DNA of 64,000 nt from an uncultured delta proteobacterium (GTDB lineage: Bacteria; Desulfobacterota; Syntrophobacteria; Syntrophobacterales; Syntrophobacteraceae). Numbering within the stretch: the first letter of the stretch is position 1; the number at the start of each line of letters is the position of its first letter. Location: assembly GCA_963741035.1 (NCBI GenBank), contig CAVUGX010000043.1:25899-89898 (forward strand). The letters are read 5' to 3'. Positions 3,320 to 47,048 of this stretch are shown in pieces. Both the position numbers and the translations under genes were made by a program. The notes under the pieces were generated by a model. It ran no database searches. It worked only from the letters and a program-made list of their open reading frames with translations, and was not told where the DNA came from.

Positions 3320-3339
3320 CCCCGCCTTAGCCCAGTTCC

Positions 3340-3746: not shown

Positions 3747-3772
3747 ATAGATCCCAGTGCAACGTCTTTATG

Positions 3773-3840
3773 ATTCACTGCTCACCGCCCTCCGCTTTTT
3801 CTGCTTCCTGCTTCCCGCATTTTCTGCTCACTGTTCACTG
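3773..3840. repeat. Heptamer-family repeat (ccgctttttctgcttcctgc...ttctgctcactgttcactg)
   Basis: It shares the CGCTTT-CTGCTTTTTCT-(G/A)(C/T)TCACT(G/A)TTCACT pattern with 4291-4330 and 6395-6427. It overlaps the 3-prime end of the DUF4124-like gene. Confidence 0.55.
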
Positions 3841-4277: not shown

Positions 4278-4290
4278 GGTTCGCCACTCT

Positions 4291-4330
4291 CCGCTTTGTC
4301 CCTGCTTTTTCTATTCACTATTCACTATTC
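4291..4330. repeat. Heptamer array (ccgctttgtccctgctttttc TATTCAC TATTCAC TATTC)
   Basis: This is a tandem 7-nt period. It contains the pilT-like stop codon (protein ends ...YQNSE). It is a direct repeat of 3773-3840, on the other side of the DUF4124 gene. Confidence 0.6.
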
Positions 4331-5586
4331 TGATAGATGCCGGATTTATTTATTTTGTTGACGACTTCTTCGAGACTTGTGGGTTCCTCGATTACATGTT
4401 CCTTTAATCGCCTTGAGGGTTCGCTGTCGAGGGTCTCGACGGCAATGCCGTCGATAGCTTCGTCCGCTTCCTGCAGCTCAGGAGGACATTGCTCAGGGAA
4501 ACCCCGCTGGGCGCCCGCGTCGACAAGGGGAGAATAATAAGGCGCCTCCCGGACCGATTCGGGTGTGGGCCGGAAAACATCCGCCGGGGAAGCAAAGGAG
4601 GTCAGCCTGTCGATATAATCTTTTACATATCCCTCCGTTGTAAACATCCCGTCGCTCCTCCCGGTCTGGATCGCGCTTTCGATCTGGGCGAGCTTGTTTT
4701 CACGGATCAAATTGCGAATGGCGGAAGTGCCCTTCATTATGGAGAGCAGCGGGACTCTGAAACCCGCCCTCTGATGGAATTCAAGCCGCTGGACCAAGAG
4801 CCAGGTCAAGGTCGAGGCAAGCTGAGTCCGGACTGCCTCCTGCGCTTCGGGCGGAAAGGAGTTGAAAATCCGGTAGAGGGCATCTTCCGAGTTGCTCGCG
4901 TGGAGTGAAGCTATGACGAGATGGCCCGATTCGGCGGCGTTCAGGGCAAGTCTCATTGTCTTGGTCTCCCGAAGCTCGCCGACAACTATGACATCGGGGT
5001 CTTCTCTCAATACGTCGATCAGCCCCTGTTCAAACGACGGCATATGCGTACCGAGTTCCCGCTGTTCTACAAAGGACATGGCCGAACTGAACCGGTACTC
5101 GATGGGGTCTTCCAGTGTTACTACATGTACCGTCTTCTCCCTGTTGATTTCATCTACTATGGCTGCAATCGTGGTCGTCTTTCCCGAGCCCGTGGCGCCG
5201 CAAACCAGCACTAACCCGGCGCGCACCCCGGCTATCTGCTGTATTGACGGGTGAAGATTGATGCCGGGAATACTGGGTATCGTGCCGGGCAAGATCCTGA
5301 CCGCGATGCTGAGTCCGCGGATAGTGTTGAAGACATTTATGCGGAGCCGTACGTGGCTGACCGACATGGCAAGATCGACCGACGACCGGCGCCTTAGTAT
5401 CTTCAACTGCCAGGGTGTCAGGAGGCCGCTCACCAGGCGGTCGACCTGCTCGTGCGACCACCTGATGCCTCTCTCAAAACTAACGAGTCCATGTTTTCGA
5501 AAAACAACGGGGTGGCCGCCGGTTATGTGCACGTCGGAGTATCCTTCGCCAACGGCGGTGAGCATCAGGTTGTCAAATCGTTCCAT
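4318..5586 (-). CDS. pilT: Type IV pilus retraction ATPase, PilT/PilU family, with a ~70 aa C-terminal extension
   Basis: Walker A is GATGSGKTTT, Walker B is DVIVVGELR, and the His box is AESGHLVIASLHA. Confidence 0.85.
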   Translation of the reverse strand: MERFDNLMLTAVGEGYSDVHITGGHPVVFRKHGLVSFERGIRWSHEQVDRLVSGLLTPWQLKILRRRSSVDLAMSVSHVRLRINVFNTIRGLSIAVRILPGTIPSIPGINLHPSIQQIAGVRAGLVLVCGATGSGKTTTIAAIVDEINREKTVHVVTLEDPIEYRFSSAMSFVEQRELGTHMPSFEQGLIDVLREDPDVIVVGELRETKTMRLALNAAESGHLVIASLHASNSEDALYRIFNSFPPEAQEAVRTQLASTLTWLLVQRLEFHQRAGFRVPLLSIMKGTSAIRNLIRENKLAQIESAIQTGRSDGMFTTEGYVKDYIDRLTSFASPADVFRPTPESVREAPYYSPLVDAGAQRGFPEQCPPELQEADEAIDGIAVETLDSEPSRRLKEHVIEEPTSLEEVVNKINKSGIYQNSE

Positions 5587-5615
5587 TTAGATTGTTCCAG
5601 TCTGCGGGTTTGATT

Positions 5616-5646
5616 CAGTGAGCAGTGGAAATTTTACTGCTCACTG
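5616..5646. repeat. Perfect 10-bp inverted repeat hairpin built from the CTCACTG heptamer (cagtgagcag-N11-ctgctcactg)
   Basis: Read directly from the sequence, 30 nt upstream of the pilT-like start codon. Confidence 0.6.
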
Positions 5647-5710
5647 CCCTGATACCGTCCAGGTTACCATCATAGCGTGTCACAAAGTACGGGTGTGAAA
5701 TAATCGGCGC

Positions 5711-5795
5711 TTCATGCGTGATTGCCGGCGGAACGTTTGTGTCAAATTGTTATTGCCACTGTTACCCGTTGCATCAAAATTCAATACGGAGTCAC
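5711..5795. repeat. Copy A of an ~85 nt direct repeat
   Basis: The sequence ttcatgcgtgattgccggcggaacgtttgtgtcaaattgttattgccactgttaccc... aligns by hand at roughly 75 percent with 6211-6295. Confidence 0.5.
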
Positions 5796-6210
5796 TATTT
5801 AACTTCGGAATTTTTCAATAATAAATTAAATATTAGTCATTAGCCGGTGAAAACCATCTTCCAAGAATCAGAGAAGCCGAGCCCGGCCGCGATGAGCGTG
5901 CCTTCCATTTTAAACTCTGCCCCCTGTGCCGGTAGCTTGCCGGAGAATCAGCATCAGTGTCCAGTTTATGCTGATGTACGCCTCGCAACAAGTTGAGATC
6001 AAGACCGGGTATAAACCCAGCCCCCACAGCATTGTCGCGCTGCTACATTCGCAGGGGAGGGCTGACATCCCGGAGCACCATACTTGCGCGCAACGTGGGT
6101 GCGCGACAGGGAAACAGCCGAGGCCTCGCTGCTTCAGATGACGTTCGTGAAGTTCGGGCAAATGTCTTGTCGGACCGCTTGAGTCATAGCAATCCTTGCA
6201 GGTTTGGTGT

Positions 6211-6295
6211 TTCATGAGCGATCGCCAGCGGAACGCCTCGCGTCAAATTATTATTACCATATTACCTATCGTGTCAAACTTCGATACAGTTCATG
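6211..6295. repeat. Copy B of an ~85 nt direct repeat
   Basis: The sequence is ttcatgagcgatcgccagcggaacgcctcgcgtcaaattattattaccatattacc... On the minus strand it carries TTGACA-N16/17-AATAAT, a promoter-like pattern. Confidence 0.5.
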
Positions 6296-6394
6296 TGCGT
6301 CAAGGACACCCTGTAACCATGAAAAGACCCGTAAAACCTGTAGGGTAAGCGGGAGCGCAGCCCGCCAAAACTTTTCGGAAAAGAATTAACAACA

Positions 6395-6500
6395 CGCTTT
6401 GTTCCTGCTTTTTCTGCTCACTGTTCCTCGCGAAGCGATAGAACCAAAAGGAATTATTTTCTTTTGCTTTTTCTATTCACTATTCACTGCTCACTATTGA
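6395..6500 (+). repeat. Composite repeat holding two heptamer-family units and an ~85 nt element shared with 18745-18832
   Basis: The segment 6414-6500 reads ctgctcactgttcctcgcgaagcgatagaaccaaaaggaattattttcttttgctttttctattcactattcac. It matches the reverse complement of 18745-18832 at roughly 88 percent by hand alignment. Confidence 0.7.
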
Positions 6501-6729
6501 CTATTTAAATGGTAAAGAGTCAGTTCCATTTTTCCGATTAAATACTCAAAGTTGGTAGCCGGCATGGTGCTGTTTTTCGTCGAGCTTCTTTGAAACCAAC
6601 GCCGGGATTGATAAGAGGTTTAGTGGAAAGGACAGGAGTTGCTCACCCCCCTGGAAACCGGCGCTGGTCGAGAATAAGGATGTTATTTTTGAACTGCCGG
6701 TATTGGGCGTTGAGGCAAAGGTATAGGGC

Positions 6730-7212
6730 ATGAAATTATCGAAGAAAGATTCGCCTGGTTTTACCATGATCGAAGTCATAGCGGTGCTCGTGATCCTGGG
6801 CATAATTTCCGCCGTTGTGATAGCCAAAGTATCCTCCGTCATCGCCCAATACAACCTGGATTCCGAGGCGGACGTCATAAAGGGACATCTTCGTTACGCC
6901 CAGGCGCTATCCATGAATAGTACCGTGAATTGGGGGATAACCTTTTCGAGTGGAAGTTACACCATTTTCACCAATCCAAGCTCTACCGTAGCGCTGCCTG
7001 GAACAAGTAATACCGCCGCCCTCGCCACTGCGAACTTACCATCAGGGATGACAATCTCAACCGGAACGGTTTCCTTTGACTCCTGGGGGACGCCTTATAC
7101 GGACATTCACGCTACCAGTTTGCAAACGGGTGGACCGCAATCCTACACTTTATCCCTGGGGAACAATTCGGTGGCCATTCTAATCTGGGACGACACCGGG
7201 CTTATTCCATGA
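6730..7212 (+). CDS. Prepilin-type N-terminal cleavage/methylation domain protein (minor pilin, GspH/FimT-like)
   Basis: The class III signal is KKDSPGFTMIEVIAVLVILGIISAVV. It is the first gene of a four-gene pseudopilin operon. Confidence 0.8.
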   Translation: MKLSKKDSPGFTMIEVIAVLVILGIISAVVIAKVSSVIAQYNLDSEADVIKGHLRYAQALSMNSTVNWGITFSSGSYTIFTNPSSTVALPGTSNTAALATANLPSGMTISTGTVSFDSWGTPYTDIHATSLQTGGPQSYTLSLGNNSVAILIWDDTGLIP

Positions 7213-7664
7213 AGACACCATACCCATCGAAATGCAGATCACTCGGTTTTACTCTTATAGAGGTGATAGTAACGATTGTAATTGCCGCTGTCATGGCGCA
7301 TATGCTCTTCACATTGTCTTTTACATTTCTTAAGATGAGCGCTAATCAGGTTAGCGCTATCCAAAACAATATGGCCTTTTTTCAGGTAATGGAAAATATG
7401 GTTGCAGATTATAAAGCTAAAATGTCTTCCACTACCGATACCAGTCCATTATCAACTTTTAGTACAAGTGTTACGGCTAATGCTACAACAACATATTATG
7501 GACAAACCTACACTCTTGTCAATAACACTCCGTGTTATGCTACATACAATGGAAGTGGGGCTGAAACATCGTGCGTAAGTTCTCCTGTTCCTGCACCTCC
7601 GAGCACACTCAAGATCCAGATTTCAAATGGGACTATGACTCTGACATCACTTTTCACGCAATGA
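7209..7664 (+). CDS. Prepilin-type minor pilin (PilV/MshO-like)
   Basis: It carries GFTLIEVIVTIVIAAVM. An ATGA start/stop overlap with the upstream gene indicates translational coupling. Confidence 0.75.
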   Translation: MKTPYPSKCRSLGFTLIEVIVTIVIAAVMAHMLFTLSFTFLKMSANQVSAIQNNMAFFQVMENMVADYKAKMSSTTDTSPLSTFSTSVTANATTTYYGQTYTLVNNTPCYATYNGSGAETSCVSSPVPAPPSTLKIQISNGTMTLTSLFTQ

Positions 7665-7670
7665 TTTTAC

Positions 7671-8603
7671 GTGAAAGGAAAGAATAAAGTGAAAAACAAA
7701 GCCGGTTTTACTCTTATCGAACTTATTGTTACATTGGTTATTATTGGTATCGTAGCTGCCATTGCCGGCCTTGGGGTCCCGATGTATGCCCGAAGTTATC
7801 TGTTTGTGCGGAATAACTCGGCTATAAGCCAGAAAGCCCAAATAGCCCTGGTAAGGATAGGGCGGGAGCTTGTCGATTTGCAGTCCATTACCTCAACCAG
7901 TTCATCCCCTACGAGTATTACGTACACCAGGCTGTCCACCAGCCAGGCTATAATGACCCAGACTCTCGCGTATAATTCAACGAACAAAACGATCACGCTG
8001 CTCAGCACGGGCGGACCGTTTTCCGAATCTGCCAATACTTTGCTCGATAATGTGACTGCTTTTACGTTGTCTTATTATGCGGGGAGTTCGGCGTGGGTTA
8101 GCGGGACCAGCAGCCTCAACCTGCTCTCCACTATTGCGATAAGTATCACGGAGACGGGCACCGGCGTGTATGGCAGTAGCTCTACGACAACTTTTACGAC
8201 TACCGTCAGTCCGCGTAATAATGGGAACACAGGCGGCGTAGCTCCGCCTACTCCCTCGACCCAACCGGCTTTCACCAAGAATTGCTTCGTCGCAACCGCC
8301 GCTTACGGGCAGGTGGACCATCCCACGGTCGTGCTGCTGAGGGAATTCAGGGACCGGTTTCTTCAGAAGTGCTATTTGGGCAGGTGTTTCATCGATGCGT
8401 ACTATAAAGTCGGACCGTCTTTGGCGGACGTGATCCGAAATCGTCCATGGGCCTGTTTTGCAACACGTGTGTTGCTGTCGCCCGTTGCGGGAATGGTTCT
8501 TTTGATGATGTACTTTCCGGCATCGATTCCGGTGATTTTCATCATTTCCTGGGGCAGCTTTTATTTCATGCGTCGTAAATGTTTAAGACTCAAGGATCGA
8601 TAG
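7671..8603 (+). CDS. Prepilin-type minor pilin fused to a C-terminal CFIATAAYG-type (CFI-box-like) membrane-anchored domain
   Basis: The start is GTG, and an alternative GTG at 7689 would give MKNKAGFTLIE. The N-terminus has AGFTLIELIVTLVIIGIVAAIAG. From 8283 the sequence is CFVATAAYGQVDHPTVVLLREFRDRFL...YYKVGPSLA, followed by hydrophobic segments. Confidence 0.75.
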   Translation: MKGKNKVKNKAGFTLIELIVTLVIIGIVAAIAGLGVPMYARSYLFVRNNSAISQKAQIALVRIGRELVDLQSITSTSSSPTSITYTRLSTSQAIMTQTLAYNSTNKTITLLSTGGPFSESANTLLDNVTAFTLSYYAGSSAWVSGTSSLNLLSTIAISITETGTGVYGSSSTTTFTTTVSPRNNGNTGGVAPPTPSTQPAFTKNCFVATAAYGQVDHPTVVLLREFRDRFLQKCYLGRCFIDAYYKVGPSLADVIRNRPWACFATRVLLSPVAGMVLLMMYFPASIPVIFIISWGSFYFMRRKCLRLKDR

Positions 8604-8605
8604 GC

Positions 8606-10684
8606 ATGCTGAAGGATCAAAAAGGGTCGGTACTCATCGCAGCTATCGTGACCATAGCCGTCATGGGAATCCTGATGGCCGCCATGACTGCATTTCTACC
8701 GACGTCCAGTTGGGGTCCGTCAAATAGTTATGCTTCCAAAAAGGCTTATTATATGGCCGAATCAGGCTATAGATACGCATCCTCTCAGTTTATCCATGCG
8801 AGCACTGGAACCAGCGCGGCAGCACAAGCCGCTAAGTTTGCGGAACTTAATACGCTTAATGGTTTACAGGGTGCATCAGCGGTGAACGTTAAAGCCGGGA
8901 GCGGATCGGCCGGCAAATTCGCGCTGACCGTCACACCTTATTTCTTGACCTTCAGTAACGGCTACTCTTCCACGAGCAGTTCTTTGTCGGTGGCGCTGCA
9001 ATATCCAGGTACGGCGCCTGCCACAGCCTACCAGCTACCCGCCGCCTCCGGTGCATTGGACGTTAGCACTACTACTATACCATCGGTAGTAACCTACACC
9101 AACTGCTCATCGACTAAAATCGGCTTTTCATTGACGATATCAAGCCTTCCCAATTCGGTTTTGGCTTATAACAGCGTCCGATATGCAACACAACCAACGA
9201 GCGCAGCTACGGTTCAGAAGGGCGGCAATCTTACTTTGACTAATGCAGGGCCATTTCCATCAACAAATGGAACTTTTAGAACAAAGACCGGCGTTGTATA
9301 TGCCTACCAATCTAAATCAGGAAATACTCTCCAGAATATAACTTTTAGCGACAGCAGTAATCCGGGTACTAATATGCCACTGACGGTTGCTGCGACCGAT
9401 TATATAGTATCCAACGAATATGTTCAGATAGCTTCTACCGGAACGGTATCCTCAGGAAGCGCCACATTATCGGATACGGTAAATTATTATGTACCCCTTG
9501 GATTTGTCCAGACCCCGAGCACTGGTTCTTCCTCTCCCTCGCCGCCAACATTGACAGGCAGTCCTGATACAATGAACTCTGCCACCGACCCCGGTTTTGC
9601 CGGCGTGGTTTCGGGAGCAGCTGCGTTTAATGTTAGCGATCCTAATAATTCCGGTAATAAATATTTGCAGATGACTTCAGTAAGTGGAGATACTGCGTAT
9701 GAGAATGATATCGGACTCGGCAGCAATAGTGGATCTCTGGCACTGTTGCCTCTAAACAGTTCACTTTTAAATAGCCTCAGTTCTGCATGGAACAATGGGA
9801 ATCATTATTATGAGGCACAGGTAAAGGTTAGCACTTATCAAACTAACTATAATAACCTGCCTAATTACCTGGCTGGAATTAATTTTGGGTTGAAACAATC
9901 CGGAAGCTCATATTATGGTTATGGAATTTCATTTGCTTACTTTCCATCTGGTGCTACTACTAGTAAGAGTAATATGGATGGTATACCCGCTGGACTGTTG
10001 CCCAATAATAACTTAACAGGCCAACAAATGATTTTGTTATGGGAAAACACGCAGAATAACGGGTTCCAGTGGATCGCCTACCAGACGCTGCCATCCCCCA
10101 TTTCTAACGGCAGCACTAACCCGGGTATCGAGAATTGGACCACTCTGTTGGTAAGTATTAACGAGATAGATACGGGAAGCGGATCACCATACAATTTGAT
10201 CAGGGCCTACTACGGAACTGTCACGAACCAGGGGACTGGTCAAAATACTATCCCGACCGACAATAACAGCGGTTCAGATCCACTATGGGGTGCCACCCCA
10301 AGTCCCAACTGGGTGCCTCTCGATGCAACGGCAACGCACTGGACAACCGGCTGTAACGGTGGAAGCTGCGATAATTACACGCTTGTAAACTGGACCGCTG
10401 TCAATTCCAGTTCAACCGCCAATCTCGCCCCGTCCTCCGTCTTACCAAGCGGAGACAGTGCGGAGACAGGCTGCGTTATTCAGGACTCCACATTTACAAC
10501 GGGAGCTTCCGGCTCCCTTACCAGCCCGGTGATCGCTTTGCACGTGGCAGGGAGCTACGGTTGCAGCGGTATTATTATCTTTGGCTCTTGTAATAGTATC
10601 AATATCGGTTTTGATGATTTTGCTATTGGAGCACTGGGTGGAAATAATTATACAATAGGTTTTACATCACCGATTGAGCAATGA
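8606..10684 (+). CDS. Large Ser/Thr/Asn-rich pilus-associated protein with a PilX_N-like hydrophobic N-terminus (candidate tip adhesin, MshQ/PilY1 analogue)
   Basis: The start was moved to the ATG at 8606, directly after the upstream stop. The N-terminus is KGSVLIAAIVTIAVMGILMAAM, with no G-F cleavage site. The rest is 692 aa of low-complexity extracellular-type composition. It is the last gene of the pseudopilin operon. Confidence 0.6.
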   Translation: MLKDQKGSVLIAAIVTIAVMGILMAAMTAFLPTSSWGPSNSYASKKAYYMAESGYRYASSQFIHASTGTSAAAQAAKFAELNTLNGLQGASAVNVKAGSGSAGKFALTVTPYFLTFSNGYSSTSSSLSVALQYPGTAPATAYQLPAASGALDVSTTTIPSVVTYTNCSSTKIGFSLTISSLPNSVLAYNSVRYATQPTSAATVQKGGNLTLTNAGPFPSTNGTFRTKTGVVYAYQSKSGNTLQNITFSDSSNPGTNMPLTVAATDYIVSNEYVQIASTGTVSSGSATLSDTVNYYVPLGFVQTPSTGSSSPSPPTLTGSPDTMNSATDPGFAGVVSGAAAFNVSDPNNSGNKYLQMTSVSGDTAYENDIGLGSNSGSLALLPLNSSLLNSLSSAWNNGNHYYEAQVKVSTYQTNYNNLPNYLAGINFGLKQSGSSYYGYGISFAYFPSGATTSKSNMDGIPAGLLPNNNLTGQQMILLWENTQNNGFQWIAYQTLPSPISNGSTNPGIENWTTLLVSINEIDTGSGSPYNLIRAYYGTVTNQGTGQNTIPTDNNSGSDPLWGATPSPNWVPLDATATHWTTGCNGGSCDNYTLVNWTAVNSSSTANLAPSSVLPSGDSAETGCVIQDSTFTTGASGSLTSPVIALHVAGSYGCSGIIIFGSCNSINIGFDDFAIGALGGNNYTIGFTSPIEQ

Positions 10685-36729: not shown

Positions 36730-37494
36730 TCAAATCTCAACCTCATCCCCGGGTTCGGGCATCAAGACCTCGAGATCCTTGACTTCTGCACTCACACGCA
36801 AAATGTCATCCCGCCTCTCACGCCGTTCCTGACGCTGGATGTGCACCAGGGCCAGCGAGCGGGCTTTCGCCTTTCGAGCGAAGCCGATGCAGCTATTGAT
36901 GCTTGCGTGTCCCGGGACATTCGTTTCCAGGCGGAAAGCCTCGTGAATCACAAGATCGGCGGCGCGCGCGAGCGAGAGCGTTTCATCGGTTGAAAGTCCG
37001 TCCCCGCTGTAGGATACCGATTTGCCTCCCTTTTCGATGCGGACGGCCAAGTCTCTTTGAGGATGCCCATTTACGGCGGTTTGCCACGTAACACCTGCGG
37101 CTTCGACAACATCTCCCGGTTCGACCGTCAGATAGCGGATATCGTAGGCAAACCTGTCCGCGACAGACGAATAGGCCAGCTTAAGCACCCGGGGCACTAT
37201 TTCGTCTATTGCTTGCTGGCCCAGGATAAAGAGAGGCTTTGTACGCTTCATTTCCCAGAAACGAGTAAGCATGGCGGGCAGGCCGAAGAAATGATCCCCG
37301 TGAAAATGCGATATCCAGATTGCGTCAAGATCGTCCGCATCCGTGCAACTTTTCCAGAATGGGGGAGGGGAAGTGAAGCCGCAGTCCAATAGGATCGAAC
37401 TTTTATTGAGGCGCTCTGTCCCCCTGACCCATATGGACGTGTTTGGAAGGTCCTCGTCGAAAGCTTCACCGACCCCGATGAATTTTATTCGCAC
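36730..37494 (-). CDS. MBL-fold metallo-hydrolase (RNase Z-like)
   Basis: The HxHxDH motif appears as SHFHGDH, and downstream His/Asp ligands are present. Confidence 0.75.
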   Translation of the reverse strand: MRIKFIGVGEAFDEDLPNTSIWVRGTERLNKSSILLDCGFTSPPPFWKSCTDADDLDAIWISHFHGDHFFGLPAMLTRFWEMKRTKPLFILGQQAIDEIVPRVLKLAYSSVADRFAYDIRYLTVEPGDVVEAAGVTWQTAVNGHPQRDLAVRIEKGGKSVSYSGDGLSTDETLSLARAADLVIHEAFRLETNVPGHASINSCIGFARKAKARSLALVHIQRQERRERRDDILRVSAEVKDLEVLMPEPGDEVEI

Positions 37495-37688: not shown

Positions 37689-40610
37689 ATGGCGGCAAAA
37701 AGCGAATTTGAACTGATTTTTGAGAAGGAAATTCCCGAGCTGAAGGGCCTCGTCCGGTTTTACCGGCACATCCGGACCGGCGCCGAATTGCTTTCGATAA
37801 TAAACGAGGAAGATAATAAAGTATTCGGCATCTGCTTTCGCACGCCGCCGCCCGACTCGAGCGGGGTCGCACATATCCTGGAACACTCGGTCCTTTGCGG
37901 TTCAAGGAAATACCCGGTGAAGGAGCCCTTCATCGAGCTGGTGAAAGGTTCACTCAAGACATTTCTCAATGCCTTCACATATCCTGACAAAACCTGCTAT
38001 CCCGTGGCCAGCCAGAACGTCCAGGATTTCTACAACCTGGTCGACGTCTATCTGGATGCGGTTTTCTATCCGCGCTTGACGCCTTTTGTCCTCCAGCAGG
38101 AAGGATGGCATTACGAACTCGATGACCCTGAAGGTCCACTGACAATCAAGGGAGTCGTCTACAACGAGATGAAGGGGGTCTATTCCTCGCCCGACAGTAT
38201 GCTCTCGGAGATATCCCAGCAGTCTCTTTTCCCGGACACGACATACGGGCTGGATTCGGGCGGAGACCCGCGGGTAATCCCCAGCCTGAGCTTCCAACAG
38301 TTCAAGTCATTCCACGAGAGATTCTGCCACCCTTCAAACGCAAGGATATATTTTTACGGCAACGACGACCCTGACCGAAGGTTGGAAATAATTCATGAAT
38401 ACCTCAAGGACTTCAACCGGACCGAGCCCGAATCCGGTGTCCCCCTTCAAGGGTCCAAGACCGAGCCGGTCCGGATCGTCAGATCGTTTGCGGTGGGTGA
38501 AGACGAGGCTGCGGGGGGAGAGCCCAAAAGCATGGTGACGGTAAACTGGCTTCTTCCGGAAACAACCGACCCCAGCCTCAATCTTGGTTTCCAAATCCTC
38601 GAGTACGTTCTTCTCGGCATGCCCGGGTCCCCGCTGAAGAAGGCCCTGATCGAATCCGGGCTGGGCGAAGACATTGCTGGAGGGGGCCTTGAGACCGAAC
38701 TGCGTCAACTCTACTTCTCTACCGGTCTCAAGGGAATCCGCGCTGAAGATGCCGACAAGGTCGAAAAGCTTATCCTCGAAACTCTATCTTCTCTCACGCA
38801 GAAGGGTATCGACCCTGCAACAGTCGAAGCGGGGGTGAACACGATTGAATTCCGGCTCCGCGAAAATAACTATGGCAATTTTCCGCAGGGGTTGGCGATC
38901 ATGCTGCGCTCACTGTCCGCCTGGCTCTATGATGCCGATCCGACCTCTCTATTGGCCTTTGAATCGTCTCTGAACCAAGTAAAGCAAAATCTGAAATCGG
39001 GCGGTTTTTTGGAAGGCCTCATTGACCGGCACCTTCTTGGAAACCCGCATCGGACTGTTGTTTTGCTGCAACCGGAGCCAGGACTTGGGGCAAAGGAACT
39101 TGAAGAGGAAGCCAAAAAGCTTGCGGGAATCAAGAATTCGCTTTCTCATGATGAAATCCACCGGGTAATCGAAAACGCCAAAACGTTGAAGGGTATGCAG
39201 TCGAGTCCGGATTCACCGGAAGCATTGGCCACCATCCCCGTACTCAGGGTTTCCGATCTGGACAGGCGCAACAAAATAATTCCCGTGGAACCGATGTCTG
39301 TCGAAGGCGCGTCCGGGTTTTACCACGATCTTTTTACAAGCGGCGTAACTTACCTGGACGTTGGATTCAATCTTCAGGCACTCCCTCGGGAGTATCTGCC
39401 CTATGCGCCTCTTTTCGGCCGGGCTCTCCTCGAGATGGGGACGGCCTTTCAGGATTTTGTATCCCTTTCCCAAAAAATCAGCCGCAAGACAGGCGGCATT
39501 CGCTCAGAGGTGTTCACCTCCGCCGTGATCGGTGACAGCGCCCCGGCCACATGGCTTTTTTTGCGGGGCAAGAGCATGATTCCGCAGGTCGGCGATCTTG
39601 TCGATATCCTTGCGGAAGTGCTCGGCTCCGTTAAACTGGATGACAGGGAAAGGTTCCGTCAAATCGTGTTGGCGGAAAAGGCTAAACAGGAAAGAAAAAT
39701 TGTTCCCAACGGCCATCAGGCAGTCAATCAGCGTATCCGCGCTCACTTCAACCAGGCGGACTGGGTGAAGGAGTTGACCGACGGAATAAGTTATTTCCTT
39801 TTCCTGGGAGAGCTTGCCAGGGAGATCGATGAAAACTGGAGCAAAGTGGTTTCAGATTTGGAAGAGGTCCGCAGACTGCTCGCCAGTCGTTCAAACATGG
39901 CTTTCAATTTGACGAGTGAAAGGAAAGACTTCCACCCTGTCGAGCTTGCATTGCGTAATTTTCTCAGTGCCATTCCGGACCGACCGACAGCGATAGAGTC
40001 ATGGCAGCCCCGGCTTTTCCCTGAATTCGAAGGGATAATTATCCCTTCGCAGGTAAACTACGTTGGAAAAGGCGCGGACCTCTACCGGGCGGGCTACGAA
40101 CTGCACGGTTCGAGCAAGGTCATAACCGGCTATCTTCGCACTTCCTGGCTTTGGGAAAAGGTGCGGGTCCAGGGAGGCGCCTACGGAGGGTTCTGCCTCT
40201 TCGACCGTATATCCGGCGTCTTCACCTTTGTTTCCTACCGCGACCCGAACCTGCTCAAAACTATTGAAAACTTCGACGGTACCGCGAATTTCCTGCGCAC
40301 AGCCGATCTTTCCGACGATGAAGTCCGCAAGGCTATAATCGGAGCGATCGGTGAACTCGATTCCTACATGCTGCCGGATATGAAAGGATATGTTTCGATG
40401 CTGCGCCACCTCACCGGCGACTCCGAGGAAGTCCGCCTGAGGATGCGCGACCAGATATTGGGGACTACCGCAAAAGATTTCAGGGCCTTTGCGGAGGCAC
40501 TCGAAAAGGTGAACAGGGACGGAATTGTCAAAGTACTGGGGGCACAGGCAGCCATCGACTCCGCTCTGGCCGAACGCCCCCGGTGGCTGAACACTTTCCG
40601 GCTATTGTAA
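37689..40610 (+). CDS. Peptidase M16 (insulinase/PreP-like) zinc metalloprotease
   Basis: The inverted zinc motif HxxEH appears as HILEH within AHILEHSVLCGSRKYP. The ~970 aa four-domain length is typical of PreP-like enzymes. Confidence 0.85.
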   Translation: MAAKSEFELIFEKEIPELKGLVRFYRHIRTGAELLSIINEEDNKVFGICFRTPPPDSSGVAHILEHSVLCGSRKYPVKEPFIELVKGSLKTFLNAFTYPDKTCYPVASQNVQDFYNLVDVYLDAVFYPRLTPFVLQQEGWHYELDDPEGPLTIKGVVYNEMKGVYSSPDSMLSEISQQSLFPDTTYGLDSGGDPRVIPSLSFQQFKSFHERFCHPSNARIYFYGNDDPDRRLEIIHEYLKDFNRTEPESGVPLQGSKTEPVRIVRSFAVGEDEAAGGEPKSMVTVNWLLPETTDPSLNLGFQILEYVLLGMPGSPLKKALIESGLGEDIAGGGLETELRQLYFSTGLKGIRAEDADKVEKLILETLSSLTQKGIDPATVEAGVNTIEFRLRENNYGNFPQGLAIMLRSLSAWLYDADPTSLLAFESSLNQVKQNLKSGGFLEGLIDRHLLGNPHRTVVLLQPEPGLGAKELEEEAKKLAGIKNSLSHDEIHRVIENAKTLKGMQSSPDSPEALATIPVLRVSDLDRRNKIIPVEPMSVEGASGFYHDLFTSGVTYLDVGFNLQALPREYLPYAPLFGRALLEMGTAFQDFVSLSQKISRKTGGIRSEVFTSAVIGDSAPATWLFLRGKSMIPQVGDLVDILAEVLGSVKLDDRERFRQIVLAEKAKQERKIVPNGHQAVNQRIRAHFNQADWVKELTDGISYFLFLGELAREIDENWSKVVSDLEEVRRLLASRSNMAFNLTSERKDFHPVELALRNFLSAIPDRPTAIESWQPRLFPEFEGIIIPSQVNYVGKGADLYRAGYELHGSSKVITGYLRTSWLWEKVRVQGGAYGGFCLFDRISGVFTFVSYRDPNLLKTIENFDGTANFLRTADLSDDEVRKAIIGAIGELDSYMLPDMKGYVSMLRHLTGDSEEVRLRMRDQILGTTAKDFRAFAEALEKVNRDGIVKVLGAQAAIDSALAERPRWLNTFRLL

Positions 40611-40725
40611 GAGTTTTTAGTTTTTAGTTTTGAGTTTTGTGAGTCTTGAAGAGTTTTGAGTTTTTGAGTGTAAAACCAAAAGATGCTGTGATCCATGCCC
40701 AGCTCAAAACTCAAAACTCCTCGGG
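40611..40725. repeat. GAGTTTT heptamer array plus a 17-bp inverted repeat (candidate bidirectional terminator hairpin)
   Basis: The array reads gagtttttagtttttagttttgagttttgtgagt... The arm gagttttgagtttttgag at 40651 pairs with ctcaaaactcaaaactc at 40703-40719. It lies between convergent genes. Confidence 0.55.
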
Positions 40726-40729
40726 TCTT

Positions 40730-40915
40730 TTATAGCTTCTCCGGCTTGCAAAGGTTTCCCGCATCAGCGGCAGCCCGTCCGCAATTGCCGCAGACGTATT
40801 TCGGATTGCGCACCAGTTCTTTGTACTCCTTCAAGTTAGATTCGACAAAACCGATATTCTGAAGATAGCACAGGTGCTCCTCATGACTCGGATGTGGCAT
40901 TTTTTTCTCAGCCAT
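40730..40915 (-). CDS. Small conserved Cys-containing protein (61 aa)
   Basis: The start was moved to MAEKKMPHPSHEEHLCYLQNIGF at 40915, which has GAGGAAAAA upstream. The protein also carries YVCGNCGR...NLCKP. Confidence 0.5.
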   Translation of the reverse strand: MAEKKMPHPSHEEHLCYLQNIGFVESNLKEYKELVRNPKYVCGNCGRAAADAGNLCKPEKL

Positions 40916-41149
40916 TTTATTTTTCCTCATAATTGGTATTATAGAAATAAGCAAGCCCAAGCTTTTCGATTGCGCGGCCGAACTCACAGTACCTTTCCCG
41001 GAAGAAAACATCTCGTGCCGCACCGCCAATAACCTCTGGAGGTTGCACAGTTAAATTAAAATAAGAATAGTCTCGAAGCTGAACAAGCGGGTTGGGGTTC
41101 CGGTGATTTTGCTGCTGAAGATACTATTTCCGGGCATGCGCCGCGCTTC

Positions 41150-41329
41150 TCAGCTCGCGCCCGAGTCCCCTCCGCCTATAATAGCGTTCAATTGGTTTAT
41201 GAGGTTTTCCTGGGACTTCGAGCATTTATCGCACGAACTCAGGTGGTCCAAAAACGCGGTGATGTTCCAACCTTCGTAGGTTTTTATCCCCAATTCGATG
41301 GGGTCCTTCCCGCAAAGCAGGTTAAGCAT
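41150..41329 (-). CDS. Possible small protein (59 aa) with an HxxxCxxC (ZAS-like) motif, below the ORF-track length cutoff
   Basis: Hand translation gives MLNLLCGKDPIELGIKTYEGWNITAFLDHLSSCDKCSKSQENLINQLNAIIGGGDSGAS. GGGAG lies 7-8 nt upstream of the ATG. Confidence 0.3.
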   Translation of the reverse strand: MLNLLCGKDPIELGIKTYEGWNITAFLDHLSSCDKCSKSQENLINQLNAIIGGGDSGAS

Positions 41330-41487
41330 AGTAAGCTCCCGTATATATGTTCAAATTGTCTATACCGCAAATGAGCCGGATGCGGAATAAAAAAGCGATC
41401 CCTGCATAGGGGTTTCCATTTGCTATAAGTTTTTGCATACTTTTTCGGTAGTCTTTACTCCTTAACCATTTTCTTCAACTTTTCGTT

Positions 41488-41515
41488 TTGACATTCAAAT
41501 CGAACCAGATATTTT
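41488..41515 (+). promoter_or_regulatory. Sigma70-type promoter candidate for the XRE-S24/TcmP-like operon
   Basis: The pattern is TTGACA-N16-TATTTT. It is followed by a 7-bp inverted repeat, GTGGTGA at 41518-41524 and TCACCAC at 41550-41556, which could be an operator or a leader hairpin. Confidence 0.4.
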
Positions 41516-41581
41516 GTGTGGTGAACCCGATCCGAAAAGAGGGAAGCGCTCACCACGAAAAGCAGATAGGCAGGCAGGAAA

Positions 41582-42286
41582 TTGCTGTCCGAGAGACTTA
41601 AAAAAATCATCCGTGATTCCGGTTTGACGCTCGGGCAATTTGCCCAAAAAACCGGAGTTTCCAAAAACACGTTGATAAACTACCGCGACGGAGTAACTTC
41701 TCCTTCTGCAGAGTTTCTGGAGTCTGTTTGCCGGGAGTTTTCGACTGATCCATGCTGGTTGCTCCTGGGCGAGCAAGCCGCCGGGACCGGATTAGTAGCG
41801 GGCAAATCGGCAATTGAGGAAATCACGTGCTATTCCCTCATTCCACTCCTGGAATCGCGTGTGACAGCCGGGCCGCAAGGAGAAATCCTTTACGGCGAAA
41901 TCTCTGACCATCTCCCTTTCAAGAAATGCTGGATCGAAAAGTTGGCGGGAAAAAGCTCGGAACGGCATAGGAGTCTTTTCCTGATGCGAGTCAGGGGAGA
42001 TTCGATGTCGCCAATTATAAACCAGGGAGAGATAGTTCTGGTGGACGGCAGCGATGCTGAGCGCCTCGCGGTGCTCGCGGGGCGCATATACCTGGTAATT
42101 CTGCCCGACGGGACCACGGCTCTCAAAAGATTAGTCCTGAGCTCGAATGTGAGCGGCCTCAAGCTGGTTTGCCTATCCGACAACACCGCAGACTATCGTC
42201 CGTTCGAATTTGCCCTGGATTCGGAAAGAAAACTTAAGTCGTATGTGTTGGGGCGGGTGCGGTGGGCAGGGAAAGAGTTTGAATGA
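41582..42286 (+). CDS. XRE-family HTH plus S24 (LexA/CI-like) self-cleaving repressor
   Basis: The start is TTG. The HTH region is LTLGQFAQKTGVSKNTLINYRDG. The S24 domain carries catalytic Ser in RGDSMSP and Lys in TALKRLV. Confidence 0.8.
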   Translation: MLSERLKKIIRDSGLTLGQFAQKTGVSKNTLINYRDGVTSPSAEFLESVCREFSTDPCWLLLGEQAAGTGLVAGKSAIEEITCYSLIPLLESRVTAGPQGEILYGEISDHLPFKKCWIEKLAGKSSERHRSLFLMRVRGDSMSPIINQGEIVLVDGSDAERLAVLAGRIYLVILPDGTTALKRLVLSSNVSGLKLVCLSDNTADYRPFEFALDSERKLKSYVLGRVRWAGKEFE

Positions 42287-42302
42287 CCGGAAAGGGGGGG
42301 GA

Positions 42303-43463
42303 ATGGCTACTGCGAATTATACCGAAAAAGAAGCGGCATCCATTAGAAATGAGCTGCTAAAGGCCTATCTGGAGCCGCTCTTTATGATCAACGGTCAGCG
42401 GGAAGCGAGGATTAATTACATAGACTGCTTTTCCGGACCCTGGCAGAAGGCAAAGCAGGACCCGGAAGATACTTCAGTAGCCATCTCTCTCGGCATTATG
42501 GAGAAGTGCCACAATGATTTATCGGAAAAATTCCGGAAAGACGTTCACTTTCGCGCGTTATTCATTGAAGGCGACAAAAACTCTTTTGGCCGGCTCGAGA
42601 GCTTTCTGAAATCCGAATCCTGGGGTGGTGTCGATACCTTTTGCCTCAAGGGTGATTTCTACGATCTGCGGGAGGAAATATTGTCGTGGTGCGGTAATCG
42701 GGATTTGAGCATTTTCTTCGTCGATACGACGGTATTGAGGCATATGGCGATTCAAACCCTGCAACCTCTTCTGGGAAGAGCATCTTCCGAGTTTCTCATC
42801 AGTTCCAGCTTTGGTTCCATCCTTCGAGGCAATGCTCAAACGAGCTTTGAGGAGCAATTAAAGTCAGTTTTCGGCGAGGTGCCGGATACTTCGCATATCG
42901 CGCCGGAAGAAAAGGAAAGATTCTTGCTCGACCTGTATTGCCGGGAACTTAGAGTTTCTGCGTCTACATTGGAAGGGCAAACTCCGCGTTGCGCACATAT
43001 GAGGCTCCCGAATCCAAAAAAAGACCGCGCAGCTCATGATCTTGTCTATCTGAGCTGGGATGCGCCGGGCATAGTAACTTTCATGGAAGCCTCCGAACAA
43101 CTGGAAATTGAACGGAGGAAGGAAGGCGCCCTGGCAAGTCAATCCAAAAAAATCAAGCGCAGCGGTCAGCTCGAGCTTTTTTCAGCGGACAAATTGGTTG
43201 GAGAAGAACCGGCGGCCGATCCGGGAAAAGTAAAAGAGTACTGGCTGACCAGACTGTCAAAGACTCCTGAACGGTTCGGGGTTGCCGAGTTCGCCGACAT
43301 GATGGAAGAAACCGGTTGGTTTATGAGCGATTTTCAAAAGGCGTTTTTAGAGCTGGAACGCGAAGGAAAGGTCAAAAACCTCGCCTCTACCGGCATGCGA
43401 ACCGAAAACCCCGTTCATTATTGGGCAAATGGAAATCGGGGCGAGCTTCTGGTAAAGGTGTGA
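42303..43463 (+). CDS. TcmP-like (three-Cys-motif partner protein family) protein with a C-terminal winged-helix-like extension
   Basis: The ATG at 42303 follows a G-rich SD, 16 nt after the repressor stop. The motifs YIDCFSGPW, ALFIEGDKNSFGRLESFL, IFFVDTT and HDLVYLSWD resemble the TcmP / methyltransferase-like fold as recalled. No Gp37/Gp68-type partner gene is present. Confidence 0.5.
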   Translation: MATANYTEKEAASIRNELLKAYLEPLFMINGQREARINYIDCFSGPWQKAKQDPEDTSVAISLGIMEKCHNDLSEKFRKDVHFRALFIEGDKNSFGRLESFLKSESWGGVDTFCLKGDFYDLREEILSWCGNRDLSIFFVDTTVLRHMAIQTLQPLLGRASSEFLISSSFGSILRGNAQTSFEEQLKSVFGEVPDTSHIAPEEKERFLLDLYCRELRVSASTLEGQTPRCAHMRLPNPKKDRAAHDLVYLSWDAPGIVTFMEASEQLEIERRKEGALASQSKKIKRSGQLELFSADKLVGEEPAADPGKVKEYWLTRLSKTPERFGVAEFADMMEETGWFMSDFQKAFLELEREGKVKNLASTGMRTENPVHYWANGNRGELLVKV

Positions 43464-43591
43464 GAGCGCACTTGCACCCAGGCCTGCCATGTCCGTACTG
43501 TGCAGGAAAAGTGCGCGCTGGATGTTGCCGGGTTAGGAACCTCCCTGTGCTCTTGGGGGCCGCGATGAGACGCAGGTCCCCAAATTCCGAT

Positions 43592-46517: not shown

Positions 46518-47048
46518 TCAAGCCATGGATACAGAGCTTGCCTGTGCTCCCTTGTCTCCGGTTTTTTCAATAAATGTTACCTCCACGCCTACCGTCAGAA
46601 CCGCAAATTTCCCATCCAGCACCGCGTTTTCATGAAAGTAGACCTCCCGGCCTTCATGCGTTACCAGGAACCCATAGCCTTCTTCCGGGAATATCCTCGC
46701 CACCCTTGCCATCGGCTTCTCAAAGTGGGTTTTCACCTCGCCCCTTTGCTTTTCCGCGTATTCTTTAACGCGCCGTTGGGCGGCTTCGAAGGAATTTATT
46801 ATTGCAGCATGAAGGTCTTCGTCCGGTTCACGTTTGACGATCAACTCACCGCCCGGTACGGTTATATCGATCCTGACGTTATAAGTCATTCCGCTGCGCT
46901 GACTGCGGTGAGGCATGTCCACTTTCACCCGGCACCCGATGATCCGGTCATAGAACTTATCGAGTTTTGAGGCTTTGTCACGGATGAGATCTTCGGTTTC
47001 ATCATTGATGCGCACGTCACGAGCGCTGATTTCAAGCGGTAATTTCAT
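46518..47048 (-). CDS. HPF/RaiA (S30EA) ribosome-associated domain fused to a cold-shock-like domain
   Basis: The N-terminal ~100 aa is S30EA-like. The C-terminal EEGYGFLVTHEGREVYFHENAV...VEVTFIEKTGDKGAQA has the CSD pattern. Confidence 0.7.
   Translation of the reverse strand: MKLPLEISARDVRINDETEDLIRDKASKLDKFYDRIIGCRVKVDMPHRSQRSGMTYNVRIDITVPGGELIVKREPDEDLHAAIINSFEAAQRRVKEYAEKQRGEVKTHFEKPMARVARIFPEEGYGFLVTHEGREVYFHENAVLDGKFAVLTVGVEVTFIEKTGDKGAQASSVSMA

Follow-up and report, generated by a model that had tools for sequence, protein, structure and literature searches.

The window, i.e. the whole stretch of 64,000 nt analyzed here, carries a gene for an XRE-type repressor with a peptidase S24 domain, followed on the same strand by a gene for a protein resembling TcmP, the three-Cys-motif partner protein; the pair is present where the initial annotation had placed it. 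Two small, conserved Cys-containing ORFs of the minus strand, sm61 and sm59, had been overlooked. The features are as follows:

40730–40915, minus strand: sm61, 61 aa from ATG, containing CGNCG; context gene of the conserved block
41150–41329, minus strand: sm59, 59 aa, with CDKC; context gene divergent from the repressor gene
41488–41515, plus strand: putative sigma-70-like promoter of the S24-TcmP operon (TTGACA, 16 nt, TATTTT; 10/12 matches)
41513–41561, no strand assigned: inverted repeat TTTGTGTGGTGA / TCACCACGAAAA, arms 25 nt apart, just 3′ of the −10 hexamer
41582–42286, plus strand: XRE-HTH/peptidase S24 repressor, 234 aa, TTG start, HTH in residues 1–64
41867–41872, 42002–42004 and 42125–42127, plus strand: repressor sites Ala96-Gly97, Ser141 and Lys182, respectively
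42287–42302, plus strand: intercistronic spacer, 16 nt, with a G-run Shine-Dalgarno sequence
42303–43463, plus strand: TcmP-like protein, whole, 386 aa
42303–43172, plus strand: its methyltransferase-like (Rossmann) N-terminal domain, residues 1–290
43221–43463, plus strand: its GMT-wHTH-like C-terminal winged helix, residues 307–386

The first gene had been described as encoding a CI/LexA-like repressor with an intact Ser/Lys dyad, and this description held. Both domains of the protein scored above their cutoffs: Peptidase_S24 (PF00717; E 3.2e-12, 46.6 bits, cutoff 23.3) and, at the N-terminus, HTH_19/HTH_3 (PF12844, 32.4 bits, cutoff 30.2; PF01381, 28.7 bits, cutoff 23). It also matched phrog_4, ‘transcriptional repressor’, at 5.9e-28. 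In the alignment Ser141 of GDSM and Lys182 of ALKRL fall on LexA Ser119 and Lys156; both motifs are unchanged in 21 orthologues, with a variable linker. The Ala96-Gly97 pair, situated in LLESRVTAGP 44 residues N-terminal to Ser141, is likewise invariant in 21 orthologues, and the dN/dS of the gene is 0.08–0.28. These data support a CI/LexA-type repressor that is predicted to be autocleavable. With its XRE-type HTH and S24 domains, Ala-Gly site and Ser/Lys dyad the protein resembles lambda CI/LexA as well as the ‘c’ repressors of Mu-like phages (MuM16-1; PMC8541194).

The product of the second gene matched the TcmP profile TIGR04474 (76.2 bits, cutoff 53, E 3.9e-21, residues 17–253), as its proposed TcmP-like character demands, and the motifs quoted for it, YIDCFSGPW, FIEGD and FFVDTT, were all found. 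Its AlphaFold model (pLDDT 84.6, pTM 0.87) retrieved in Foldseek class-I SAM methyltransferase folds alone, and these weakly (E 5e-5 to ∼1e-4, TM 0.3–0.5), in agreement with the suggested methyltransferase-like fold; no close relative was found among solved structures. With RsmD/YhhF-type class I SAM amino-methyltransferases the protein shares a Rossmann fold and a motif-I-like DCFSGPW (target-normalized TM 0.44–0.52 in Foldseek); however, the similarity is weak (E ∼1e-4, 9–14% identity), and the window protein lacks motif IV, the DPxGW of canonical TcmPs that recalls the DPPF/Y of these enzymes. The winged-helix tail of ∼100 aa, also anticipated, is modeled confidently as helices and strands (pLDDT 93–97); PF22560 (GMT-wHTH) matches it over residues 307–364 at 26.1 bits, slightly below the cutoff of 27, and many TcmP homologues carry a precomputed PF22560 match.

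Upstream of the repressor gene, the TTGACA hexamer is kept in most aligned orthologous regions (those of loci L003, L027 and L015 differ), and the element at 41488–41515 may well act as the promoter of both genes. The inverted repeat next to it could serve as an operator in autorepression; similar TTGGT..CACCAA..AACCAAAAAA elements are located 5′ of the S24 gene in relatives, loci without TcmP included. Exactly 16 nt separate the repressor gene from the ATG at 42303 and include the Shine-Dalgarno sequence, just as first read, and a scan of this spacer found neither a promoter-like nor a terminator-like site. The spacer measures 13–18 nt in most orthologous loci and 66–263 nt in L003, L019, L020, L022, L024, L025 and L027; thus, co-transcription of the two genes, which we would expect in the window, may not be universal.

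The region had also been taken for a low-GC insert, and here we have to disagree. With a GC content of 0.494 (window, 0.531) it ranks at the 7th percentile of segments of the same size, and most of this mild dip is due to AT-rich intergenic spacers (GC 0.37–0.46); the S24 gene is ordinary (0.526, z −0.7) and the TcmP gene modestly low (0.494, z −1.8). Since relatives share the entire block, in synteny and co-diverging with the chromosome, it is no insert on any recent time scale. No integrase had been seen, correctly, and transposase and tRNA genes are absent nearby as well. Given this modest GC deviation, the missing mobility genes and the synteny, we rejected a recently acquired island or prophage.

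Synteny of the block extends over more than 20 Syntrophobacteraceae genomes (the hosts are uncultured MAGs). At 22 loci we found the order sm61-sm59-S24-TcmP, as a rule immediately 3′ of the M16 peptidase gene; exceptions are L003 and L027, with a Ner/Gam cluster in between, and L055, where an IS-like element has inserted 5′ of S24. By tblastn, copies of sm61 were found in nearly all loci of this TcmP clade and in loci L094–L100, which have S24 without TcmP; copies of sm59 in relatives are 77–97% identical and unchanged in position. Neither small ORF has a match in Pfam, NCBIfam or PADLOC. Between the window and loci L009/L011, dS is equal across the three genes compared, at 0.27–0.31 for TcmP, 0.25–0.26 for S24 and 0.24–0.26 for the M16 peptidase gene. 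The block is, therefore, old and vertically inherited with the chromosome. The sequence 3′ of TcmP varies even among relatives 87–91% identical. At the same locus S24 occurs without TcmP in L094, L097 and L100, while a lineage nested within the clade (L006–8/L026) has TcmP without S24, full-length and with its Shine-Dalgarno sequence; whether TcmP was gained or lost at the locus was judged from the ranking of S24 identities and the neighbor-joining (NJ) tree.

A neighborhood survey of 88 related loci divided the TcmPs into two clades. In clade A (53–98% identical to the window TcmP) S24 is upstream in 22 loci and DUF5131, the three-Cys partner, in none. In clade B (32–49% identical) DUF5131 is adjacent or nearby in all 56 of the 56 informative loci, and tblastn with one S24 query, which very divergent S24 genes could escape, detected no S24 relative. 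The partner had been reported missing from the locus; indeed, tblastn found no DUF5131/PF07505 relative in the 64-kb window or in any clade-A locus. In the NJ tree clade A is monophyletic and nested among the DUF5131-linked TcmPs, and this orphan clade evolves faster (root-to-tip 0.447 versus 0.336). The expected linkage of homologues to S24 repressors was thus seen at 22 distinct loci, but all of these belong to a single Syntrophobacteraceae clade, inherited vertically at the same site of the chromosome, and hence reflect one event rather than repeated co-occurrence. The expected defence or mobile context was not found at this locus, which is flanked for 10 kb on each side by housekeeping genes with no defence island in sight. 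Canonical TcmP-DUF5131 pairs, by contrast, match the PADLOC phage defence candidates PDC-M30/M41 and can occur in defence islands or on conjugative plasmids.

Compared with that cassette, the window TcmP has the same length, the same methyltransferase-like plus wHTH architecture and a score above the TIGR04474 cutoff. The differences are the missing radical-SAM partner, the S24 gene upstream, the chromosomally fixed position (the cassette is scattered, in islands or on plasmids) and the erosion of motifs. Motif I (IDCFSGPW) and the acidic residues of motif II/III are intact; motif IV, already noticed as degenerate, reads VDTTVLR (42720–42740) versus the family [IV]DPxGW[KR], i.e. DTTVL in place of DPxGW, and the third family motif, SEFLINFMYDF, has become SEFLISSSFGS. 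Among partner-linked TcmPs 90 positions are ≥93% conserved; the orphan clade has lost or switched 16 of them, and the window TcmP departs at 23 of the 90 (including P142T, G144V, W145L, K146R, N167S, F168S and F172S). The orphan TcmP is probably non-catalytic, judging by these replacements, though with motifs I and II/III intact it might catalyze a reaction on a new substrate. It is still under purifying selection (dN/dS 0.16–0.29 overall, 0.19–0.36 in the N-terminal domain), strongest on the winged helix (0.02–0.13), many residues of which are the same throughout clades A and B.

Where could such a pair have come from? In the basal TcmP-bearing loci L003 and L027, and in the S24-only locus L100, the S24 gene faces a divergent operon made up of a Ner-like HTH_35 gene, small ORFs and Mu Gam; S24-only locus L094 has kept the Ner-like gene and small ORFs, with Gam absent. 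Ner and Gam are hallmark genes of Mu, and mitomycin induces Mu-like phages whose c repressors are of the HTH_19+S24 type (PMC8541194). The divergent arrangement of basal relatives is that of Mu-like phages. Unlike in these phages, transposase, structural and lysis genes are gone, the window lacks the Ner/Gam operon too, and the S24 gene is chromosomal and syntenic across a family-level lineage. The Ner/Gam cluster could also be a separate insertion beside S24 rather than its original partner.

We give an about even chance to the locus being a long-resident, domesticated remnant of the immunity end of a Mu-like phage, with a repressor that makes the orphan TcmP damage-inducible. The repressor would most likely bind the inverted repeats over its own promoter and so autoregulate a bicistronic S24-TcmP operon; upon DNA damage, RecA*-stimulated self-cleavage at Ala96-Gly97 via Ser141/Lys182 would most likely inactivate it. 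The TcmP paralogue would derive from a TcmP-DUF5131 cassette and have come to lie 3′ of a repressor gene that an ancestor of this Syntrophobacteraceae lineage already possessed. With the radical-SAM partner absent, motif IV would then have been lost, while the fold and the constrained winged helix were kept, a combination pointing to a DNA-binding role rather than that of the original enzyme. Today the orphan TcmP may be a damage-inducible DNA-binding, possibly SAM-binding protein. Domesticated phage-derived functions under S24 repressors are exemplified by Pseudomonas aeruginosa PrtR (pyocins) and AlpR (lysis cassette), two repressors acting on a separate activator or operon, and lambda rexAB is co-transcribed with cI and expressed together with active repressor. 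By analogy with all three, a CI-like repressor kept by the host may here couple an accessory gene to DNA damage or lysogeny; unlike in those systems, the cargo is an orphan methyltransferase-like/wHTH protein.

The same gene pair could be read as a defence or addiction module triggered by SOS or phage, in which S24 cleavage frees TcmP to block the phage or arrest the cell; we hold this to be unlikely. The canonical pair matches PDC-M30/M41 (DUF5131 at E 1e-108 to 1e-113, the A component at 1e-11 to 1e-15), adjoins Shedu-like, MmeI/Eco57I and T5orf172 genes in locus L093 and is found elsewhere on a conjugative plasmid; a TcmP of S. meliloti neighbors the Hna defence helicase (PMC12445080). Repressor plus cargo is also an arrangement like that of exclusion genes expressed in lysogens, and both S24 and TcmP are under purifying selection. 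However, against PDC-M30A the window protein reaches no better than E 5.6e-4, and the B component (DUF5131) is absent; we rejected PDC-M30/PDC-M41 membership on this ground. Furthermore, the protein has lost residues that do not vary in partner-linked TcmPs, the genes are inherited vertically in a fixed position between housekeeping genes, and searches of IMG/VR and INPHARED found no phage relatives. Full-length TcmP has outlived the deletion of S24 in L006–8/L026, which one would hardly expect of a toxic effector needing repression. Together with the S24-only loci L094–L100 this lineage argues against an obligate repressor-toxin pair and does not support toxin-antitoxin or addiction. The existence of both single-gene variants would suit mere adjacency, with S24 regulating itself (and ancestrally Ner/Gam) and TcmP having landed downstream to be expressed independently. 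The spacer range of 13 to 263 nt and the rearrangement-prone spot, with its variable 3′ sequence and the IS-like insert of L055, also fit this reading, which we nevertheless find rather improbable: in most of the 22 loci the genes share a strand with a gap of 13–18 nt and a Shine-Dalgarno sequence, the gap has no promoter-like site, and the pair has stayed together over 53–98% protein identity.

At least four genomes hold both S24-TcmP and a canonical pair (L017 with L031 on one contig, L030 with L036, L055 with L034, L019 with L087), and one could speculate that the orphan TcmP works with a DUF5131 protein encoded elsewhere, e.g. as a damage-inducible alternative targeting subunit. DUF5131 belongs to radical-SAM superfamily megacluster 5-2 and is listed beside spore photoproduct lyase (5-3) (PMC9477430), which would fit a link to DNA damage. 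As the orphan clade is eroded exactly at positions invariant in all partner-linked TcmPs, and DUF5131 is absent from the 64-kb window, we see little chance for this. Least credible of all, in our estimate, is a decaying relic without present function. Motif erosion, the faster evolution of the orphan clade, the loss of neighboring prophage genes and the S24 or M16 frames split in some assemblies might suggest one; the split S24 frames, though, occur in long-read MAGs with M16 also split and are likely sequencing errors. Full-length ORFs in more than 20 genomes, dN/dS values of both genes like those of the M16 peptidase gene and the invariant catalytic and cleavage residues of S24 speak against decay.

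The TcmP-DUF5131 cassette is widespread and wholly uncharacterized, its PADLOC entry marking a defence candidate only. The locus is a natural experiment in which a TcmP long survived without its radical-SAM enzyme and lost exactly the partner-linked invariant residues; their loss, set beside the constrained winged helix, points to the residues for partner-dependent chemistry as opposed to DNA binding. A regulatory input can be proposed as well, namely cleavage of S24 under the control of RecA. The region would further illustrate how a host can retain the immunity part of a prophage after its reduction to a repressor and a single cargo gene. As these bacteria have not been cultured, the practical impact is limited. 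It is conceivable, although we would put only modest weight on it, that the orphan TcmP, exapted from a defence-candidate cassette of the radical-SAM kind, is a genuine effector induced by SOS, acting once S24 has cleaved itself, through winged-helix DNA binding and perhaps SAM sensing. Such an effector would protect damaged DNA or take part in its repair, stop replication or keep phages out; it would give a first functional entry to the TcmP family and represent a novel branch of the damage response in syntrophic Deltaproteobacteria.

[quoted passage not shown]

Features of the locus (window coordinates)
37689-40610, + strand: M16/PreP-type peptidase gene, 5′ boundary of the region
40611-40729: AT-rich spacer (GC 0.37) between the convergent M16 and sm61 genes, with a long palindrome (hairpin at about 40646-40722)
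40730-40915, − strand: sm61, small ORF with a Cys pair, 61 aa from its ATG
41150-41329, − strand: sm59, small ORF with a Cys pair, 59 aa
between sm59 and the S24 ORF: 252-bp spacer
41488-41515: predicted promoter TTGACA-16-TATTTT, 10/12 matches
41513-41524 / 41550-41561: inverted repeat TTTGTGTGGTGA/TCACCACGAAAA, directly 3′ of the −10 hexamer
41582-42286, + strand: S24 ORF, 234 aa, TTG start
between the S24 and TcmP ORFs: 16-nt gap with a G-run Shine–Dalgarno sequence
42303-43463, + strand: TcmP-like ORF, 386 aa
43592-44920, − strand: CysRS-like gene, 3′ boundary of the region

The S24 and TcmP genes form the tightly coupled pair that the initial annotation described. The start of S24 was set by its orthologues, all of which start at the equivalent place in the alignment (the start codon being ATG in loci L003 and L027), and that of TcmP by its relatives, all starting near MxxAxY. 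The palindrome at 40611-40729 is probably a bidirectional terminator; the Rfam search of the AT-rich spacers found no known RNA, just a sub-threshold miRNA-like match to this palindrome (30 bits versus a gathering threshold of 53, both strands). The sm61 and sm59 products are 65–97% identical across Syntrophobacteraceae and neither matches a family. The CysRS-like protein (442 aa) scored 301.6 against a cysS equivalog cutoff of 340, with model positions 1–375 of 466 covered; it is a shortened CysRS/MshC-like paralogue, not a canonical cysteine-tRNA ligase.

The second gene of the pair had been read as a TcmP-like methyltransferase fold with a winged-helix tail, and searches and modelling agree. 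Its product scored 76.2 bits against NCBIfam TIGR04474 (cutoff 53), and residues 307–364 came near the threshold of GMT-wHTH (PF22560; 26.1 versus 27). The AlphaFold model (33 homologues) is confident (pLDDT 84.6, pTM 0.87) and has a Rossmann-type alpha/beta domain, then a long helix, then a winged-helix tail. Foldseek matched the model, weakly, to class-I SAM methyltransferases alone (histamine N-methyltransferase at 5e-5; RsmD/YhhF, TrmR and COMT at TM 0.47–0.52, normalised to target); the viral structure library gave the same picture. The profile search found no solved close relative of TcmP (chance-level match, E 0.12, at best), and no solved-structure relatives were found for DUF5131 (PF07505), the usual radical-SAM, three-Cys partner of TcmP. 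Taken together, the family match, the near-threshold wHTH, the model and the Foldseek matches support the predicted ‘methyltransferase-like fold plus wHTH’ as the correct description.

The protein search returned 288 TcmP relatives, many annotated as Syntrophobacteraceae. The 88 loci whose flanks we scored by tblastn came from GTDB species represented by one genome each (80 loci) and from assemblies (8); they showed a clean dichotomy in partner genes. TcmPs of the window type (clade A, 53–98% identical to the window protein) have S24 upstream in 22 distinct loci and never have DUF5131 nearby, whereas canonical TcmPs (clade B, 32–49% identical) have DUF5131 nearby in all 56 loci with enough flank, mostly 2–20 nt downstream, and no relative of S24 detectable upstream by tblastn of the flanks. 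The absence of the three-Cys partner, remarked in the initial annotation, is thus shared by the whole of clade A. This clade comes exclusively from Syntrophobacteraceae or ‘delta proteobacterium’ MAGs, with the usual gene order M16–sm61–sm59–S24–TcmP; the members of clade B are spread over Desulfobacterota, Nitrospirota, Planctomycetota, Beta- and Gammaproteobacteria. In the NJ tree clade A is monophyletic and nested inside clade B diversity, with L003 and L027 basal; the root-to-tip length is 0.447 for clade A versus 0.336 for clade B. No TcmP relatives were detected in IMG/VR and INPHARED phages, and only seven matches were on plasmids.

The motifs DCF[AS]GPW, [IV]DPxGW[KR] and SEFLINFMYDF are kept nearly without exception in DUF5131-linked TcmPs of very divergent phyla. 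As a reference we used the 90 positions at least 93% conserved among 55 such proteins: 52 are still conserved in clade A, 16 are lost or switched there (H16, F43, P142, G144, N167, F172, R275, D361 and others), and the window TcmP departs at 23. Motif IV, already noted as degenerate, is changed throughout in the window protein (P142T, G144V, W145L, K146R), which also carries N167S/F168S/F172S. With DPxxW still present in basal clade A members and the loss wider in the window TcmP, motif erosion came after partner loss and is furthest along in the window's sublineage. Retention of motif I, the acidic residue after strand 2 and GDF suggests that nucleotide or SAM binding may survive. Within TcmP the winged helix is more constrained (dN/dS 0.02–0.13) than the N-terminal domain (0.19–0.36).

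The S24 protein, described earlier as a CI/LexA-like repressor, has all the sequence-level features of a self-cleaving repressor of this type. Its Peptidase_S24 (E 3.2e-12) and HTH_19/HTH_3 domains are all above Pfam cutoffs, and it matches phage ‘transcriptional repressor’ PHROGs (phrog_4 at 5.9e-28). Pairwise alignment to what we take to be the E. coli LexA sequence equates Ser141 with LexA Ser119 and Lys182 with LexA Lys156. Among 21 non-identical orthologues the HTH, LLESRVTAGP (with Ala96-Gly97), RVRGDSMSP and ALKRLV are invariant, and the inter-domain linker is freely variable. Solved-structure relatives matched through the HTH alone.

In loci L094–L100 the same broader gene neighbourhood holds S24 orthologues that share 55–67% identity with the S24 of the window, and TcmP is absent. 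Their order is sm61(−)–sm59(−)–Gly-zipper(+)–small ORF(−)–[Mu Gam(−)]–small ORF(−)–HTH_35(−)<->S24(+)–PUA-SAM methyltransferase(−), with HTH_35 above the Pfam cutoff in the gene divergent from S24. The basal, TcmP-bearing L003 and L027 have the same Ner-like/Gam operon, and there TcmP occupies the place between S24 and the PUA methyltransferase gene. Mitomycin-inducible Mu-like phages have as their hallmarks Ner, Gam and a ‘c’ repressor of the HTH_19+S24 type (PMC8541194); given the divergent Ner-like/Gam operon in relatives, the simplest reading is that S24 served as immunity repressor in an ancient Mu-like prophage, of which a remnant is left. TcmP would have been added downstream of a pre-existing S24 (its loss from the more distant lineages being a less parsimonious alternative), and the Gly-zipper-to-Ner segment would have been deleted later, in the window lineage. 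On this reading the locus is an S24-repressor-controlled prophage remnant with a derived, orphan member of the uncharacterised TcmP family.

The surroundings of the pair are rearrangement-prone. There is an IS-like insert between sm59 and S24 in L055. In L019 (7738-8000) and, at the same position, in L020, S24 and TcmP are separated by an insert of 263 nt, rich in GC and in palindromes, which resembles a small repeat element or a structured RNA. Synteny breaks on the 3′ side of TcmP, where genes vary even among relatives 87–91% identical (a DACNV sensor-domain protein in L011, 9945-11279, − strand; a FIST protein and a PAS hybrid histidine kinase in L009, 9477-13165, + strand). Both sm61 and sm59 are linked to the S24 block without an adjacent M16 gene in L003, L094–L096 and L100; L027 and L097–L099, where M16 is not adjacent either, keep one of the two.

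The pair is not a recent arrival. Between the window and its 87–91% relatives, dS is the same for TcmP (0.27–0.31), S24 (0.25–0.26) and the M16 peptidase (0.24–0.26), with dN/dS of 0.16–0.29, 0.08–0.28 and 0.12–0.22, respectively; therefore, the pair has been under purifying selection while diverging in step with the chromosome, and the dN/dS values rule out a pseudogene. The ‘low-GC islet’ of the initial annotation did not survive closer analysis: the region has GC of 0.494 versus 0.531 in the window (7th percentile among same-size windows), with AT-rich spacers (0.37–0.46), an ordinary S24 gene (0.526, z −0.7) and a modestly low TcmP gene (0.494, GC3 0.54, z about −1.7). A recent horizontal island is ruled out: composition deviates only mildly, synteny is conserved and dS matches that of the flanking M16 gene. 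Split S24 or M16 frames occur in long-read MAGs (L005/L018 7281-7983; L028 5771-6474; L001/L021 3213-6132); since the housekeeping M16 is also split, they are probably assembly indel errors and not pseudogenes.

As had been observed for the integrase, no integrase, transposase or defence gene is present within ∼10 kb on either side of the pair, and no tRNA in the 64-kb window. The flanks hold genes for methylmalonyl-CoA mutase, MeaB, H+-PPase, an MBL hydrolase, CNNM/CorC, HPF-CSD, hydrolase-OsmC and a CobB/Q-type amidotransferase. The neighbourhood survey thus bore out linkage to S24 repressors (all within clade A) and excluded a defence-island context at the window locus, the 10 kb on each side being housekeeping; with these flanks and the M16-like dS, the suggested mobile or defence setting is wrong or at least unsupported. 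The 176-aa product of 46518-47048 (−) joins a Ribosomal_S30AE hibernation factor domain to a C-terminal cold-shock domain, an uncommon fusion. The MBL-fold hydrolase (36730-37494, −) has a weak, sub-threshold likeness to the anti-Pycsar nuclease Apyc1 (23.8 bits versus a cutoff of 50); its gene is kept 5′ of M16 in most relatives examined (L001, L006–L008; not L005).

The canonical cassette keeps different company. Its DUF5131 partner matches the PADLOC models PDC-M30B/M41B at 1e-108 to 1e-113, and canonical TcmPs match PDC-M30A at 1e-11 to 1e-15 versus 5.6e-4 for the window TcmP; PDC-M30/M41 are unvalidated ‘phage defence candidates’. DUF5131 belongs to the radical-SAM superfamily, megacluster 5-2, listed beside spore photoproduct lyase (PMC9477430). 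In L093 the cassette belongs to a defence island that also holds SduA_C, MmeI/Eco57I, T5orf172 and IS605 genes, and in L004 it lies near a DDE transposase. In L089 (9001-10916) it interrupts a cluster of Liv-type ABC transporter genes for branched-chain amino acids, where it separates the permease genes from the periplasmic binding protein gene and behaves as a self-contained two-gene insert. On the P. aeruginosa conjugative plasmid NZ_CP124633.1 (L101) TcmP adjoins a DEAD-box helicase, echoing S. meliloti, where the TcmP gene adjoins the Hna defence helicase (PMC12445080). This plasmid's cargo region (2431-10497) encodes a DUF6094 protein and a DEAD/DEAH helicase and also has two different tcmP genes; the 1-kb gap that separates these two is unannotated and is probably DUF5131. 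Literature on TcmP, DUF5131, PF22560 and PDC-M30/M41 yielded passing mentions only and no functional study.

How the pair might work can be outlined in four steps. S24, as a dimer, would bind at the inverted repeat and thereby keep its own promoter repressed; upon DNA damage RecA* would, judging by family features, induce self-cleavage at Ala96-Gly97; the operon would be derepressed and the TcmP level would rise; and one could speculate that TcmP, no longer a partner-dependent enzyme, would act on DNA via its constrained winged helix. We give this scheme as a whole about an even chance of being right, and hold its first two steps with greater confidence. The −35 hexamer is conserved in most orthologous loci, and related TTGGT...CACCAA...AACCAAAAAA elements occur 5′ of S24 in relatives, TcmP-less loci included; alignment was poor for the regions upstream of S24 in L003, L027 and L015, and the shared pattern that could be drawn from the loci is a loose TTGGT/CACCAA. 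The promoter, the inverted repeat and the lack of any promoter-like or terminator-like site found between S24 and TcmP fit an autoregulated bicistronic operon.

A damage- or phage-triggered defence or addiction effector, as initially proposed, seems unlikely to us: in L006–8 and L026, nested inside clade A, S24 is cleanly deleted, and full-length TcmP with its Shine–Dalgarno sequence is kept directly after sm59, which fits poorly with a toxic effector needing repression. These loci, together with the TcmP-less L094–L100, show that S24 and TcmP are not an obligate pair; that the two are merely adjacent, with no coupling, we consider somewhat less probable still. Both kinds of locus coexist in single genomes (L017 and L031 on one contig; L030 and L036; L055 and L034; L019 and L087); that the window TcmP acts in trans, together with a DUF5131 from another site in the genome, is, in our estimate, improbable. 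A functionless relic is very hard to credit, as the dN/dS of both genes indicates purifying selection. Should the orphan TcmP of the four-step scheme indeed be a damage-induced effector, the locus would gain in interest.
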